A stretch of DNA of 43,490 nucleotides from a virus (Duplodnaviria; Heunggongvirae; Uroviricota; Caudoviricetes), in IMG/VR virus record IMGVR_UViG_2778261673_000008, positions 1 to 43,490 of that record; one strand, given 5' to 3'. The position numbers and the translations under genes were made by a program. Position 1 is the first letter of the stretch. Every line of letters begins with the position of its first letter. Positions 5,436-34,658 of this stretch are shown here, piece by piece. Under the pieces are notes generated by a model. The model had not been told where the DNA came from, searched no databases, and saw nothing but the letters and a program-made list of their open reading frames with translations.

Positions 5436-5513
5436 TTACCGTTGAGGTAATAATTATGCGTATATGGTTTGATGTCAATAGATATGAGTTAAAAAAATTA
5501 CCCGTTAGGTAAT
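5436..5513. promoter_or_regulatory. Left operator region: two copies of palindrome (A/G)TTACC-N5-GGTAAT
   Basis: GTTACC GTTGA GGTAAT at 5435-5451 and ATTACC CGTTA GGTAAT at 5497-5513, upstream of the leftward early operon. Confidence 0.55.
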
Positions 5514-5569: not shown

Positions 5570-6154
5570 TTATTGTTTGTTTTTTTCGTTCTGGTTGATG
5601 ACAAATTCAATGTAACTTTCGATCTTTGCTTTCTCGGTTTCGGGTAACAATGCGTAGCGCGAGCGATCATAGTTGATGGTCGCAGGGTCGTGCGGGTGAA
5701 TCAGTAATTCATAGCCGTGACGCCCGAATGCGGATGCAACATTCTCCAGGGTGGAAATGGAAACGCTGACCTCATTGTTTAACAGGCGGCTGATTGTCAC
5801 CTGGGCTACGCCGGATGCGCGGTGAAGTTTTCCCTGTGTTGAAAGGTCGCGGCTTTCGCTCATCCAGCGTTCCAGGTTGTGAGCCGCCAGCTGGCCAATG
5901 TCGCTTGGGCCGACAGGCTGAAAACCTTCCTGAGAAAGCGAGCGATCGATATCAAGCCAGTTACGGGGTTTATTGGCGGCAGCTTCAATTTTTCGTGCAA
6001 CCTGGTCGCCGATAACCTTCTTGCCAAGAGCCCAGCGGTTTACCAGATTTGCCTGAGTTCCAAGTTTTTCAGCCATCCGCGTCTGAACACCATTGAATTC
6101 ACGGTCGATCAAGTCGTTGAGATTTTGCCTGCGGACGTCCTGGATACTTTTCAT
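5570..6154 (-). CDS. Phage repressor with two tandem XRE-type HTH domains, no S24 peptidase domain
   Basis: 194 aa; HTH-like segments near residues 25-65 and 110-160; divergent from the Cro-like gene with operators in between; own terminator. Confidence 0.7.
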   Translation of the reverse strand: MKSIQDVRRQNLNDLIDREFNGVQTRMAEKLGTQANLVNRWALGKKVIGDQVARKIEAAANKPRNWLDIDRSLSQEGFQPVGPSDIGQLAAHNLERWMSESRDLSTQGKLHRASGVAQVTISRLLNNEVSVSISTLENVASAFGRHGYELLIHPHDPATINYDRSRYALLPETEKAKIESYIEFVINQNEKNKQ

Positions 6155-14335: not shown

Positions 14336-14412
14336 TGGCGTGGCATGCAGGATTCGAACCTGCGACCAACCGCTTAGAAGGCGGTTGCTCTGTCCAACTG
14401 AGCTAATGCCAC
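14336..14412 (-). tRNA. tRNA-Arg (anticodon UCU), phage-encoded
   Basis: Hand-folded cloverleaf: acceptor GTGGCAT/ATGCCAC, D-arm GCTC/GAGC, anticodon stem ACCGC/GCGGT with loop CTTCTAA, T-arm GCAGG-TTCGAAT-CCTGC, encoded CCA. Confidence 0.85.
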
Positions 14413-31573: not shown

Positions 31574-31599
31574 ACAAAAAAAGCCCGCAGCGCGGGCTT
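31574..31599 (-). terminator. Rho-independent terminator of the 31598-32137 gene
   Basis: AAGCCCGC-AGC-GCGGGCTT hairpin with 7-nt T-run on the minus strand, overlapping the stop codon. Confidence 0.75.
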
Positions 31600-32137
31600 A
31601 CCAAAACTTGTACCACGGTGATTTATCCTTCAATGGACAATCCTTCCATCGTGTGGCCAACCATTCATATTCTTTAAAATATGTGTTTATGTTTTCTTTT
31701 TCTCTAATGGCTTGTATAAGAGGTAGCGCAATCTGATAGTTATTTACAACGGAGCTGTAAAATACTTCCTTAATCATGGTCTCATCATAAGTTTTCCGCT
31801 TCACGCTCACAGCCATGCGTTCGTAGAAACCTAGACAGTAAATTATTTCTCTCTTCTCTGTCTTTTCTTCATCCGTAAGATCAGCCTGCCCATTGCTTGG
31901 ATACATATAAGAGCGGAATGATTTGTTCGATTCGTGAATGCGGCGCATAGTAGATAGGCCTTTCTTATAATCTACATCAAACCTGCTTTCACCAAGGAAT
32001 ACTGAAGTGTGTACTTTTCTCGCTGTATTTACATTATAAATAATAGTAGCGATAGCTATGAACAAGCCAAGCGAAACCGCGACTGCACTTACTATTTGAG
32101 CCACGGCCATGGCAAATTGCATTTCTTCACTTAACAC
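31598..32137 (-). CDS. AT-rich membrane-anchored protein of unknown function
   Basis: Single N-terminal TM helix then a 150-aa domain rich in Y/K/E; very low GC relative to neighbours; own terminator. Start GTG 32137 or ATG 32122. Confidence 0.5.
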   Translation of the reverse strand: MLSEEMQFAMAVAQIVSAVAVSLGLFIAIATIIYNVNTARKVHTSVFLGESRFDVDYKKGLSTMRRIHESNKSFRSYMYPSNGQADLTDEEKTEKREIIYCLGFYERMAVSVKRKTYDETMIKEVFYSSVVNNYQIALPLIQAIREKENINTYFKEYEWLATRWKDCPLKDKSPWYKFW

Positions 32138-32281: not shown

Positions 32282-32346
32282 TAGTAAGCTATTCACCTGC
32301 AATCTGTACAGAATTATTTAAAGGCACATCCCTGTGCCGCCGTCCG

Positions 32347-33057
32347 TCAGAAGAACCCTGCTTTGTCGTTGATATACTCCGCGTGGGTCTGGATATCACG
32401 CAGGCATTTGCTCACACCGACAATGTAGCAGAACATGGTGGTCAGCTCCGCCGCCGCGCCCGATACATCATGCCCGTCGTCCTGCAACTGATTCAGCAGA
32501 TTCATCAGCAATGAGTTCTCCGTCAGGCCGAGAACACCAGACGGCGAATGAATCAGACTGCGGTAGCCGGGCTTCAGTGGGGCACTGTAGGTTTTGTTCT
32601 CTATCTTCATTGCCTGCATCACTGCTGACGCCGTGGCGTTGGCTACCTGGTCGGCAACCATCTTTATGCGTTCTTCCTGCGGGAACGAGTTTTTAATGTA
32701 GCTTCCTGTTCGACGGATCTGAGGAAGTACCTCACCTGTAACCCATTTACGAAAGCGGTAGGGGATAGTGCCTAGTGTCACTGCGTCGCGGCAGCGGAGG
32801 ATCAGTGTGTAGAGGCCTGACTCGGAGATGATGTTGATCTCTTTTACTCGGCTGTCAAAAATTGCACGATGTTCATGCCCTATGTTGAACATAGACCTTT
32901 CATCATCATCCAGTTTTTCAAGTGCTTGGGTGACGTTTTGGATACGCAGCGCACTACAAACGTCTTGGGCTACAAACCATGGTTGGCCATCGATAATGAT
33001 GGAACGGATAGGGTTAACAGATTCAAATTTGAAGATGGCAGTTTGAGCATTAGCCAT
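32347..33057 (-). CDS. Bro-N domain antirepressor-like protein
   Basis: Start taken at MANAQTAIFKFE (GGAG RBS); N-terminal IFKFESVNPIRSIIIDGQPWFVAQDVCSAL is a Bro-N signature; C-terminal domain is paralogous to ORF 34206-34463. Confidence 0.7.
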   Translation of the reverse strand: MANAQTAIFKFESVNPIRSIIIDGQPWFVAQDVCSALRIQNVTQALEKLDDDERSMFNIGHEHRAIFDSRVKEINIISESGLYTLILRCRDAVTLGTIPYRFRKWVTGEVLPQIRRTGSYIKNSFPQEERIKMVADQVANATASAVMQAMKIENKTYSAPLKPGYRSLIHSPSGVLGLTENSLLMNLLNQLQDDGHDVSGAAAELTTMFCYIVGVSKCLRDIQTHAEYINDKAGFF

Positions 33058-33325
33058 GGTGGTTATCTCCACTTAGTGATTTTAATCACCACCGCAACGC
33101 CAATTACTGGTGGTGAACTGGACAAGGTTGGCGTACCGGCCTAAGTGGTACCGGTGTCCTTTCGGACCCCTGCCCAGCCCACCATAATTCGGATATAGCT
33201 GTGCTTAACGCATAAAAAAACCACGTCTGGCGTGGTATGCGCCACTTAGTAACCCGGGACGCCAATCCCGGCACTGGATTTTGCCAGTGCCCGATTACTA
33301 TGGCACAAGAGGAGTGCGATGTAAA

Positions 33326-33435
33326 TTTACCGAAAAGGTAATGATAAGCGCGAATAAATATCAAAATCAACCGTATTTGGTTGATGGAGTTTAATGCTTG
33401 ATCACCTGAAAGCAAGATATTACCTTTAAGGTAAT
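33326..33435. promoter_or_regulatory. Two operator palindromes in the divergent region between Bro and the 33455 gene
   Basis: TTTACC GAAAA GGTAAT (33326-33342) and ATTACC TTTAA GGTAAT (33419-33435, 20 nt before the ATG). Confidence 0.5.
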
Positions 33436-33454
33436 GTTATTGTGAGGAAAAGCA

Positions 33455-34183
33455 ATGGAAGTTTTCTGGATAGTTGTTGGTGTGGTTGCGGTGATTATTT
33501 ACGTTATCAACCAGAACAAGACTAAGATCTCTGATCGTACGGTCGTAAATCATAACAAAACGATAAAGACCGAAGATGGGGAGATAACGATTAATCGTAC
33601 ACAGGTGATAGAACACACCTCTACTCAGTTTCAAAAAACTGGAGGTAATGCGCCTAATATTTCCGCACCTCCTGCTTATGATAGTGCGGTAATCCAGACA
33701 TATTATAAACAGCAGGAGTTAGCAAAAGAGAGGCAACTGATTCAGCCAAAGCCATTTACAGCAGAGCTTCCACCTGGAGTGTCAACGCGTCCGGCATATC
33801 ATGGAAGATTCCCTGGTGATGACACATCGTCTCAGTCATCTAAAAAAGCACCTCAGGCAGTATCAGAGCCAGCAAGAATACCTTCTGTATCGCCGCCAAA
33901 AGAAGAATCAGCTAACAGAGTTTCAAGTGGTAGCAAGCAGTGCTTGCGATGCAGAATAAACCTTCCATATGAAAAATTCAGGAAATCGTCAAAAAATCCA
34001 GATGGATTGACTAAGTGGTGTGCAAGGTGTCTCGATGGCCCAAAGAATACACGCCATATGAAGTGGTGCCCAATTTGTAATGTCCGCAGAAAACGAACCA
34101 GCTTTTACCCTAATAATCAAAATGCGGATGGTTTAATGGCATGGTGCAAAACGTGCTGGGATGAGCACAAAGCGAAACGATAG
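33455..34183 (+). CDS. Membrane-anchored protein with C-terminal tandem zinc-ribbon-like motifs
   Basis: N-terminal TM helix (VFWIVVGVVAVIIYVI), Pro/Ser-rich linker, two repeats of C-x2-C...DGL..WC-x2-C (CLRCRIN...DGLTKWCARC and CPICNV...DGLMAWCKTC). Confidence 0.5.
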   Translation: MEVFWIVVGVVAVIIYVINQNKTKISDRTVVNHNKTIKTEDGEITINRTQVIEHTSTQFQKTGGNAPNISAPPAYDSAVIQTYYKQQELAKERQLIQPKPFTAELPPGVSTRPAYHGRFPGDDTSSQSSKKAPQAVSEPARIPSVSPPKEESANRVSSGSKQCLRCRINLPYEKFRKSSKNPDGLTKWCARCLDGPKNTRHMKWCPICNVRRKRTSFYPNNQNADGLMAWCKTCWDEHKAKR

Positions 34184-34208
34184 GCCGCTCTTGCGGCCTT
34201 TAAATTTA
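34182..34208 (+). terminator. Terminator hairpin between convergent genes
   Basis: AGGCCGC-TCTT-GCGGCCT followed by TTTAAATTT. Confidence 0.55.
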
Positions 34209-34463
34209 CCGGGTTTGTTTTCGTAATTGTTCGGCACAATAGTCGAGATGTGTTTGCAGATCCCGCATAGACATCTGTGAGCTGGTGACGTAGTTAATCA
34301 GTGCAGTCAGTTCGGCAAGTGGGCCATCGACATTAAATCCATCCTTATCGAGATCCCGGAGTAATTTCATCAAGTGCGATCCCTCCACCAGTGACCTGAC
34401 GCCTCCCGGCGTGTGAATCCTTTCGGTAAATCCCTCTTCCAGTGGATAGTGATACTGCTGCAT
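34206..34463 (-). CDS. Small protein paralogous to the Bro C-terminal domain; candidate SOS-controlled antirepressor
   Basis: Start taken at MQQYHYPLEEGF (GGAG RBS); aligns with the Bro C-terminus (HTPGGVRSLVEGSHLMKLLRDLDKDGFNVDGPLAELT versus HSPSGVLGLTENSLLMNLLNQLQDDGHDVSGAAAELT); LexA box 22 bp upstream. Confidence 0.5.
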   Translation of the reverse strand: MQQYHYPLEEGFTERIHTPGGVRSLVEGSHLMKLLRDLDKDGFNVDGPLAELTALINYVTSSQMSMRDLQTHLDYCAEQLRKQTR

Positions 34464-34484
34464 CTTATCTTCTCCATGCAATAA

Positions 34485-34500
34485 CTGTATATTTATACAG
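34485..34500. promoter_or_regulatory. LexA (SOS) box
   Basis: AACTGTATATTTATACAGTAT matches CTGT-N8-ACAG and the TACTGTATATATATACAGTA consensus; lies in the promoter region of the 34206-34463 gene. Confidence 0.7.
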
Positions 34501-34548
34501 TATCAAATAATTTATTTGCTATCCAGCACGTTTTGAAAATTACCTGAA

Positions 34549-34565
34549 AGGTAATATCTGTTCGA
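34549..34565. promoter_or_regulatory. Operator palindrome ATTACC TGAAA GGTAAT upstream of the tailspike gene
   Basis: Identical to the site at 14734-14750; followed by CATATGTGGTT (34594-34604) and GGTAATAAAAT (34610-34620). Confidence 0.5.
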
Positions 34566-34658
34566 ATTCACAGTCTATCTATCCATATGTGGTTTTTCAG
34601 GTAATAAAATAACCGGATATGCGGCGCAACGGGTGCTGCGACTATCTGGAGATTTAAC

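Follow-up and report, generated by a model that had tools for sequence, protein, structure and literature searches.

An SPC32H-type antirepressor module present twice in a Uetakevirus-like prophage, once behind a LexA box and once fused to Bro-N within a predicted P1-type C4 RNA circuit

The viral DNA of IMG/VR record IMGVR_UViG_2778261673_000008 (positions 1 to 43,490, all 43,490 nucleotides of which constitute the window analysed here) represents an apparently complete E. coli prophage, that of a temperate podovirus of the epsilon15/phiV10 type (genus Uetakevirus), whose closest DNA matches are the Escherichia phages TL-2011b, HEMP4, ZX5 and phiV10. Two antirepressor (ant) genes are located in its variable region, which is bounded by the internal-virion genes and the tailspike gene: a small one, orthologous to ant of phage SPC32H, and a larger one whose product carries a second copy of the same domain behind an N-terminal Bro-N domain. 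We consider it probable that a single Ant module of around 80 residues inactivates the non-cleavable repressor Rep in response to two inputs, one being LexA and the SOS response and the other a circuit of the type found at the immI locus of phage P1. The features that define the two genes are the following.

32347..33057, minus strand: Bro-N-Ant fusion antirepressor gene, 236 residues (stop codon 32347-32349), called as an open reading frame and matching the PHROG 'anti-repressor Ant' family (3.7e-56)
32722..33009, minus strand: Bro-N domain of the fused protein, residues 17-112 (Pfam PF02498)
32365..32595, minus strand: Ant domain of the fused protein, residues 155-231, C-terminal copy of the SPC32H-type antirepressor
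34206..34463, minus strand: small antirepressor gene ant, 85 residues (stop codon 34206-34208), ortholog of SPC32H Ant

Both open reading frames were confirmed on the minus strand. The similarity between the C-terminal end of the Bro-N protein and the small protein, proposed in a first-pass annotation of the sequence, was borne out by pairwise alignment, BLASTP yielding 32 identities over 74 positions (43%), no gaps and a significant E value of 5e-20. The motifs on which that proposal relied, L-x-E-x-S-x-LM-x-LL...DG-x-x-V-x-G-x-x-AELT and RD-x-QTH, are present, except that the quoted 'EGS' reads 'ENS' in one copy. With either domain as query, a six-frame search of the window (tblastn) retrieved only the other copy (6e-14 and 9e-18), and the paralogy spans the full length of the small protein. 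The latter is 85.7% identical to the annotated 'ant: anti-repressor protein' of SPC32H and SPC32N (tblastn), matches PDB chain 5D50_E, which is Ant in the solved Rep-Ant complex, in phmmer at 7.4e-47 (residues 8-90 to chain residues 3-85) and has a ratio of non-synonymous to synonymous substitution rates (dN/dS) of 0.06 in respect to SPC32H. The fused Ant domain matches the same chain at 2.1e-13, residues 160-236 (in 241-residue numbering) aligning to chain residues 3-79 of 86. Since the small protein is an ortholog of SPC32H Ant, which binds Rep by experiment, the C-terminal domain of the fused protein is, as judged from sequence, homologous to a complete and self-sufficient antirepressor. 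Pfam contains no family for the Ant domain; a match to DUF724 was sub-threshold in Pfam and was treated as noise.

The assignment of the N-terminal domain to Bro-N, also made in the first-pass annotation, is well founded (Pfam PF02498, 71.3 bits against a cut-off of 25.6), and the predicted architecture of the fused protein is a Bro-N domain, a linker and a complete Ant domain. As called, its open reading frame covers 32347..33072(-) from a GTG start (241 residues); the real start is likely the ATG at 33057, because a GGAG lies 9 nt upstream and database homologs (P0135, P0179-P0197) begin at the same MANAQT. Likewise, the small open reading frame was called at 34206..34481(-) with a TTG start (91 residues), and its real start is likely the ATG at 34463, which has a GGAG 8 nt upstream and gives a length in agreement with the 86 residues of SPC32H Ant. 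Near-identical 236-residue fused proteins occur in many Enterobacteriaceae. The fused gene has a dN/dS of 0.14-0.28 in respect to its relatives, the value for its Ant domain being 0.02 against ZX5 and TL-2011b (dS 0.21 against ZX5), and purifying selection is seen on both of its domains. An AlphaFold model of the fused protein was built from a 37-sequence alignment, with a mean predicted local distance difference test (pLDDT) score of 73.7, and a single-sequence run (pLDDT 35.7) was set aside. In this model a linker helix of low confidence connects two domains: the Bro-N part (pLDDT 80-90) matches the baculovirus Bro-N structure 4YE7 and the SKI-DHD/APSES/Mbp1 DNA-binding folds, and the C-terminal domain has a Foldseek match to 5D50_H with a target-normalised template modelling (TM) score of 0.72.

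The two copies are preceded by different regulatory elements, those of the small gene being the following.

34483..34502, minus strand: LexA box TACTGTATAAATATACAGTT in the ant promoter region, with its CTGT-N8-ACAG core at 34485-34500
34540..34554, no strand assigned: putative Rep operator TTACCTGAAAGGTAA between the small ant and tailspike genes, 54 bp upstream of the LexA box

The LexA box consensus is TACTGTATATATATACAGTA, with which the 20-mer TACTGTATAAATATACAGTT agrees at 18 of 20 positions; on the plus strand, positions 34485-34500 read CTGTATATTTATACAG. The box lies just upstream of the small gene and is kept at the same position in six related loci (SPC32H, phiV10, ZX5, Tyrion, a Klebsiella phage and locus L007, its first half-site being ATGT in the last two), in support of the earlier proposal that the small copy stands behind an SOS promoter. 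The putative operator at 34540-34554 occupies the same position in SPC32H, ZX5, Tyrion, the Klebsiella phage and L007, and has one mismatch in phiV10. A second CTGT-N8-ACAG at 34558-34573 (CTGTTCGAATTCACAG) was considered as a LexA site, and being absent from phiV10, ZX5, SPC32H and Tyrion it is probably a chance occurrence.

In SPC32H, as described in the literature, Rep escapes SOS cleavage and is inactivated by Ant, whose promoter LexA represses (PMC7380047, PMC9638917); Ant is tetrameric and breaks up the DNA-binding form of Rep, itself a tetramer, into dimers (PMC9638917). By analogy with this 86%-identical ortholog, in which the mechanism is established, we infer that LexA would repress the free 85-residue Ant, that DNA damage would release it, and that Ant would then bind Rep and take it off its operators. 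The small copy is already known biology; its gene appears as 'hypothetical protein' in the listed RefSeq E. coli records and in several phage records. The Rep-Ant system of SPC32H (reportedly Kim & Ryu 2013 J Virol and Kim et al. 2016 PNAS, with structures PDB 5D50 and 5D4Z) is alike in having an orthologous small ant (85.7%) between the internal-virion and tailspike genes, with the same LexA box and upstream TTACC-N5-GGTAA; also, a Rep homolog is present in the window and the C-terminal domain of the fused protein is related in sequence to this Ant family as a member of it. It differs in that SPC32H and epsilon15 have neither a fused copy nor isrK/C4 at this locus, and the window Rep is only 42% identical to that of SPC32H. 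The fused copy, moreover, has no LexA box, the nearest CTGT-N8-ACAG sites being only those at 34485 and 34558.

A distinct type of control is predicted for the fused gene, from the following elements.

33297..33341, minus strand: promoter and operator TTACCTTTTCGGTAA of the immI-like operon, from a promoter scan and an operator search
33214..33303, minus strand: IsrK-like element, equivalent of the a1/b1 decoy (Rfam isrK RF01394 at 33214-33290, 67.7 bits against 50)
33106..33189, minus strand: C4 antisense RNA (Rfam RF01695, 63.6 bits against a gathering score of 45)
33069..33103, minus strand: a2 TTGGCGT (33097-33103) and b2 CTAAGTGG (33069-33076), C4 targets in the ant leader

The first-pass annotation had placed the fused copy behind operator palindromes. 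The palindrome TTACC-N5-GGTAA is there, but what had been missed is the dominant layer of control, consisting of the IsrK-like a1/b1 element and the C4 antisense RNA. On the minus strand a putative Rep operator and -35 element come first, followed by a TG-extended -10 element, by the IsrK-like a1/b1 element and its terminator, and by C4, from which a leader of 48 nt extends to the ant ATG. The promoter (33297-33325) has the -35 TTTACA, a 17 bp spacer and the TG-extended -10 CATAGT, the operator TTACCTTTTCGGTAA (33327-33341) abuts the -35, and this arrangement is kept in six phages (the window, TL-2011b, phiV10, ZX5, Tyrion and the Klebsiella phage). The isrK match is overlapped by one to c4-a1b1 (RF03163), whose 44.1 bits are slightly below the gathering score of 46.7; a1 and b1 are located within 33242-33265, and a terminator scan places an intrinsic terminator at 33220-33236. 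In C4, the segments a' (ACGCCAA, 33128-33134) and b' (loop ACCACUUAG, 33141-33149) are both unpaired in the predicted fold. Exact complements of the two, UUGGCGU and CUAAGUGG (7 and 8 nt), are each present at two places, the IsrK element and the ant leader; in the leader, b2 overlaps the Shine-Dalgarno sequence GGAG (33067-33070) of the fused ant. This pair of motifs is found nowhere else in the window, 0 being expected by chance.

The pairing of C4 with its targets is further supported by the covariation of b' and b1/b2 across relatives, which defines four specificity classes. In the window, b' CCACUUAG matches b1/b2 CUAAGUGG, and in TL-2011b, phiV10 and ZX5, b' CCUUUUAG matches b1/b2 CUAAAAGG. 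Tyrion has b' CCUUUGUAG, which matches b2 CUACAAAGG over 9 nt (b1 only over 5 nt), and an a' AGACCAA with UUGGUCU; in the Klebsiella phage, b' CCGUUUAG pairs with b2 CUAAGCGG including one G-U pair (read by eye). Rfam isrK and C4 matches are also found upstream of every fused homolog examined. Locus coordinates are hereafter given with the labels L001 for TL-2011b, L003 for phiV10 and L008 for ZX5. The phiV10 operator before the isrK promoter is the centre of a near-perfect palindrome of about 41 bp (L003 3795-3835, GGAGTGCTTATATTTACC...GGTAAATATAAGCACTCC; read by eye), of which ZX5 (L008 about 1765-1805) retains only the outer GGAGTGC/GCACTCC arms; the window has no such long palindrome.

We propose that the promoter with the Rep operator abutting its -35 would transcribe the IsrK-like a1/b1 element, that most transcripts would probably end at the terminator of this element, and that read-through would give C4 RNA and the fused ant mRNA. 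The a' and b' segments of C4 would pair with a2 and b2 and hide the ant ribosome-binding site, so that the lysogen would silence the fused Ant at two levels. Synthesis of the fused Ant would be expected where Rep and C4 are missing or titrated away, as in a naive host that the phage has just entered or in a lysogen with a resident C4 of another specificity, and the protein would there counteract the immunity conferred by Rep; this timing is one that we infer.

The immI locus of P1 and P7 has the order a1 b1 - c4 - a2 b2 - icd - ant, with C4 antisense control of the antirepressor (reportedly Citron & Schuster 1990). The window is alike in the order of the elements, in the Rfam C4 with two unpaired segments complementary to upstream and downstream target pairs, in the position of b2 over the ribosome-binding site and in a specificity that varies among phages sharing a repressor; control of the operon promoter by the primary repressor would be a further likeness. 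It differs in that no icd open reading frame is present in the 48 nt between the end of C4 (33106) and the ant ATG (33057), so C4 would cover the ant ribosome-binding site directly; in addition, its Ant has an SPC32H-type C-terminal module, its repressor is Rep and not C1, and the phage is an integrated podovirus and not a plasmid prophage. A similar layout of Rfam isrK, then C4, then ant recalls the isrK-orf45 (STnc1160)-anrP region of Gifsy-1, in which IsrK has a leaky terminator and gives a processed RNA of around 80 nt, and the antirepressor-like gene is untranslated unless IsrK is supplied (PMC4825925); there, in contrast, AnrP drives antQ expression in a lambdoid prophage. Indeed, IsrK of Gifsy-1 raises translation of the antirepressor-like AnrP 140-fold (PMC4825925), consistent with a decoy role of the IsrK-like element.

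A close counterpart is ORF4 of ZX5, termed 'anti-repressor' (PMC9782041), which occupies the same locus with an isrK-C4 leader, a 100% identical Rep and a C-terminal domain of 98.8-99% identity, and differs in its Bro-N (69% identical) and in the specificity of C4 b'. The small LexA-controlled Ant ('hypothetical'), the paralogy and the RNAs are not mentioned in the available passages of the ZX5 paper (PMC9782041). The immI region of P22 (mnt-arc-ant with sar RNA) has a parallel in TL-2011b, where a protein with a P22_AR_N domain carries an Ant domain and is preceded by an Arc-like repressor and sar RNA; this P22_AR_N/Arc/sar module is not in the window.

The presumed target of both Ant domains is Rep, which is located, together with its predicted operators, as follows.

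5570..6154, minus strand: Rep, SPC32H-type repressor (phmmer 4e-42 to PDB 5D50_A, residues 1-190)
33420..33434, no strand assigned: second putative Rep operator, 93 bp upstream of the first (33327), next to the divergent zinc-ribbon gene
5436, 5498, 6210, 6258, 6595, 8541, 8603, 11198, 11216, 14118, 14735, 32267, 33327, 33420, 34540 and 35801: TTACC-N5-GGTAA sites of the window

Allowing at most one mismatch, 16 such sites are found in the window against 0.62 expected. These palindromes are most likely Rep operators, as suggested by their over-representation, by their presence in the rep-cro intergenic region and by their position at the ant-linked promoters; those at 5436, 5498, 6210 and 6258 flank rep. 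The sites are spread over the whole genome, often paired 48-93 bp apart, a dispersed layout which recalls that of P1 C1 and would fit a tetrameric Rep. The site at 33420-33434 is present in TL-2011b, which shares the zinc-ribbon insertion, and is not found in the shorter intergenic stretches examined, those of phiV10, ZX5, Tyrion and the Klebsiella phage, all of which are without the zinc-ribbon gene.

From several patterns the C-terminal Ant domain of the fused protein is taken to be the Rep-directed module, and the claim of the first-pass annotation that this domain is the functional one is supported by homology, domain swaps, co-divergence with Rep and over-expression of a close relative. 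Among relatives, identity of the C-terminal domain declines along with that of Rep, which is not so for Bro-N. Between the window and ZX5, identities are 100% for Rep, 99% for the C-terminal domain and 69% for Bro-N; between the window and Tyrion, they are 78%, 79% and 62%; between the window and the Klebsiella phage, 45%, 52% and 66%; and between ZX5 and the Klebsiella phage, 45%, 52% and 83%. As to distribution, the Ant domain was found in 35 of 50,697 phage records, all of Uetakevirus-like phages, and full-length SPC32H-type Rep in 36 phage records, including the Uetakevirus-like phages with the Ant domain.

The N-terminal partners of this C-terminal domain are Bro-N, AntA, Phage_pRha, ORF6N and P22_AR_N, and one AntA fusion lies at this very locus, where a small ant gene and isrK-C4 precede it. 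We regard Bro-N as an accessory that can be exchanged. The P22_AR_N protein of TL-2011b (L001 31060-32244), behind the Arc-like repressor and sar antisense RNA, is a third Ant-domain copy in that phage and its C-terminal domain is 88% identical to the fused copy of the window; TL-2011b has one output domain under three different locks. A natural 84-residue chimera, P0072 (L007 4001-4255), has a first half of the small-Ant type and a second half of the fused type, and is preceded by a putative Rep operator and by ATGT-N8-ACAG, a LexA box in which the initial C is altered. 'Stand-alone' fused-type proteins of 95-97 residues were considered as a second free subfamily and rejected: P0089 is a deletion remnant, because the linker of a truncated fusion gene can still be recognised in the DNA before it, beside an AlpA-like remnant (read by eye), and P0004 and P0119, with the same internal methionine start, are probably remnants as well. 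Rfam gave no isrK or C4 near P0089 (L004) or near the chimeric P0072 (L007).

In functional terms, the ZX5 study reports that with ORF4 over-expressed the titre of lysogens dropped 1000-fold (10^9 against 10^6) and the level of repressor mRNA fell by 75% (PMC9782041), the C-terminal domain of ORF4 being 98.8% identical to the fused copy of the window. Also, Rep is 100% identical in the window and in phiV10/ZX5, yet their C4 specificities differ, which is by analogy the heteroimmunity pattern of P1 and P7. Such diversification of C4 on a constant Rep would be sensible only if the controlled protein defeats Rep immunity.

A number of observations weigh against this interpretation. The co-divergence is based on four phage groups and could be explained by shared phylogeny; the co-variation of Ant and Rep is not strict either, since E. 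coli and Salmonella phages whose Reps are just 42% identical have small Ants of 86% identity. The fused C-terminal domain, a predicted binder of Rep, is only 41-43% identical to the small Ant. In the ZX5 paper, the ORF4 assay used a GST (glutathione S-transferase)-tagged and strongly over-expressed protein in which the two domains were not separated (PMC9782041). The analogy to P1 is incomplete, there being no icd-like open reading frame between C4 and ant. Finally, the fused gene is dispensable, because it is not present in SPC32H and epsilon15 and is frameshifted inside the Ant domain in the phiV10 reference (L003 4494-4765), where it is annotated as a 194-residue protein and a 29-residue open reading frame; the gene may truly be inactivated by this frameshift, or the reference sequence may contain an error.

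Other explanations were considered. In one of them the fused Ant domain would serve only as a tetramerisation scaffold, the effector role would fall to Bro-N, and the target would be DNA or a host component and not Rep. Since SPC32H Ant is described as a tetramer (PMC9638917), the shared residues could indeed belong to its core or interface, and the match of the modelled Bro-N domain to DNA-binding folds, along with the purifying selection on Bro-N itself (dN/dS 0.1-0.3), would suit a Bro-N effector. However, it is the N-terminal domain that is swapped at this locus (Bro-N alleles of 69% identity, or AntA), whereas the C-terminal domain and C4 are kept; identity of the C-terminal domain follows that of Rep and identity of Bro-N does not; the Ant domain is found only in Uetakevirus-like phages, which carry SPC32H-type Rep; and a diversifying C4 with a constant Rep fits an anti-immunity factor. 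We thus regard the scaffold explanation as improbable. Even less credible, to the point of being very improbable, is that the fused copy modulates the small Ant, for instance through mixed tetramers formed by the shared domain, so as to damp or tune SOS induction. The homology of the two copies does span the whole of the tetramer-forming protein, and the chimera P0072 suggests that the halves are structurally compatible, but over-expression of the ZX5 homolog shifted the phage towards lysis and not towards lysogeny (PMC9782041), and nothing else points to an inhibitory role.

A further possibility, which is closer to the proposed mechanism and to which we give a minor though real share of the probability, is that the fused Ant mainly targets the Rep of resident Uetakevirus-like prophages upon superinfection and has a minor part in induction of its own prophage. 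This departs from the favoured explanation in emphasis and not in mechanism. It agrees with the presence of an identical Rep in phages with differing C4 specificity, as in P1 and P7, with the dispensability of the fused gene and with the trans-acting crosstalk of antirepressors documented among Gifsy prophages (PMC3121763); phage encounters are also plausible, as 534 of 5,426 complete E. coli genomes hold part of the region. On the other hand, the incoming promoter has a putative Rep operator, so resident Rep should repress it too.

Returning to the favoured explanation, of one Rep-directed module with two inputs, an extended version can be put forward more tentatively still, and we hold it to be rather unlikely as a whole. 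In this version a single Rep-binding module would have been duplicated and rewired, so that several independent inputs (SOS through LexA, the C4 lock and, in TL-2011b, the Arc/sar lock) would act through one kind of output. In ZX5, Tyrion and the Klebsiella phage the layout is tandem (small ant, isrK, C4, fused ant), with no clear terminator found between small ant and isrK in these three, and this tandem layout would be ancestral. In such a layout, SOS-induced read-through from the small ant could supply additional IsrK decoy, which would titrate C4 and allow synthesis of the fused Ant, thereby forming a feed-forward amplifier of induction. Cryptic heteroimmunity groups among very common E. 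coli prophages would be defined by the differing C4 specificities on an identical Rep.

In the window the two ant genes are separated by an insertion, and the remaining features of the neighbourhood concern this insertion and the downstream flank.

33455-34183, plus strand: zinc-ribbon open reading frame, 242 residues, inserted between the two ant genes in the opposite direction

The product of this gene has a hydrophobic helix at the N-terminus and CxxC repeats at the C-terminus, corresponds to PHROG 6762 (9e-150), a family of unknown function, and has a weak likeness to zinc-binding parts of the endonuclease VII, HNH and Lar-like families. The gene has its own putative Rep operator (33420-33434), is missing in ZX5, phiV10, Tyrion and SPC32H, and is annotated in TL-2011b only as a misc_feature 'similar to hypothetical protein'. 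Directly downstream of the fused ant gene lies that of a DUF4760 protein (31598-32137(-), Pfam 8e-31); because the same slot is occupied by a YafO-family toxin in TL-2011b and in locus L007, it looks like a cargo hot spot. PADLOC gave no defence-system match for the neighbouring genes, DUF4760 protein included, or for the fused Ant. A tRNA-Arg gene (anticodon TCT) is also found within the prophage, at 14336-14412(-).

The Ant-domain family is narrow, a search of 1.84 billion representative proteins giving 61 clusters at E<=1e-3, and is frequent in Enterobacteriaceae prophages. At least 80% of the stretch 32300-34600 is found in 99 of the 5,426 complete E. coli genomes, and part of it in 534 (around 10%). 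A full-text literature search retrieved no paper describing the paralogy or linking these Bro-N antirepressors to the SPC32H Ant fold or to C4 control, subscription papers being outside the search, which makes this a weak negative. The small gene is a known system, and the fused gene is an SPC32H-type Ant domain in a P1-type immI circuit without icd. As each individual mechanism is already established, the value of these results lies in annotation, modular evolution and testable predictions and not in a new principle; what is new is the modular reuse of one Rep-directed domain under different locks, together with the predictions on annotation and heteroimmunity. The solved structure of SPC32H Ant is now linked to the C-terminal ends of many 'BRO-like', 'AntA' and 'Rha antirepressor' proteins of Enterobacteriaceae prophages, which thereby gain a predicted target, Rep, and a predicted mechanism, and the small 'hypothetical protein' gene of E. 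coli RefSeq genomes and phage records can be annotated as an SOS-inducible antirepressor. Heteroimmunity classes of the P1/P7 style, having the same Rep and a different C4, are predicted to exist in a prophage family of which this region is at least partly present in around 10% of complete E. coli genomes.

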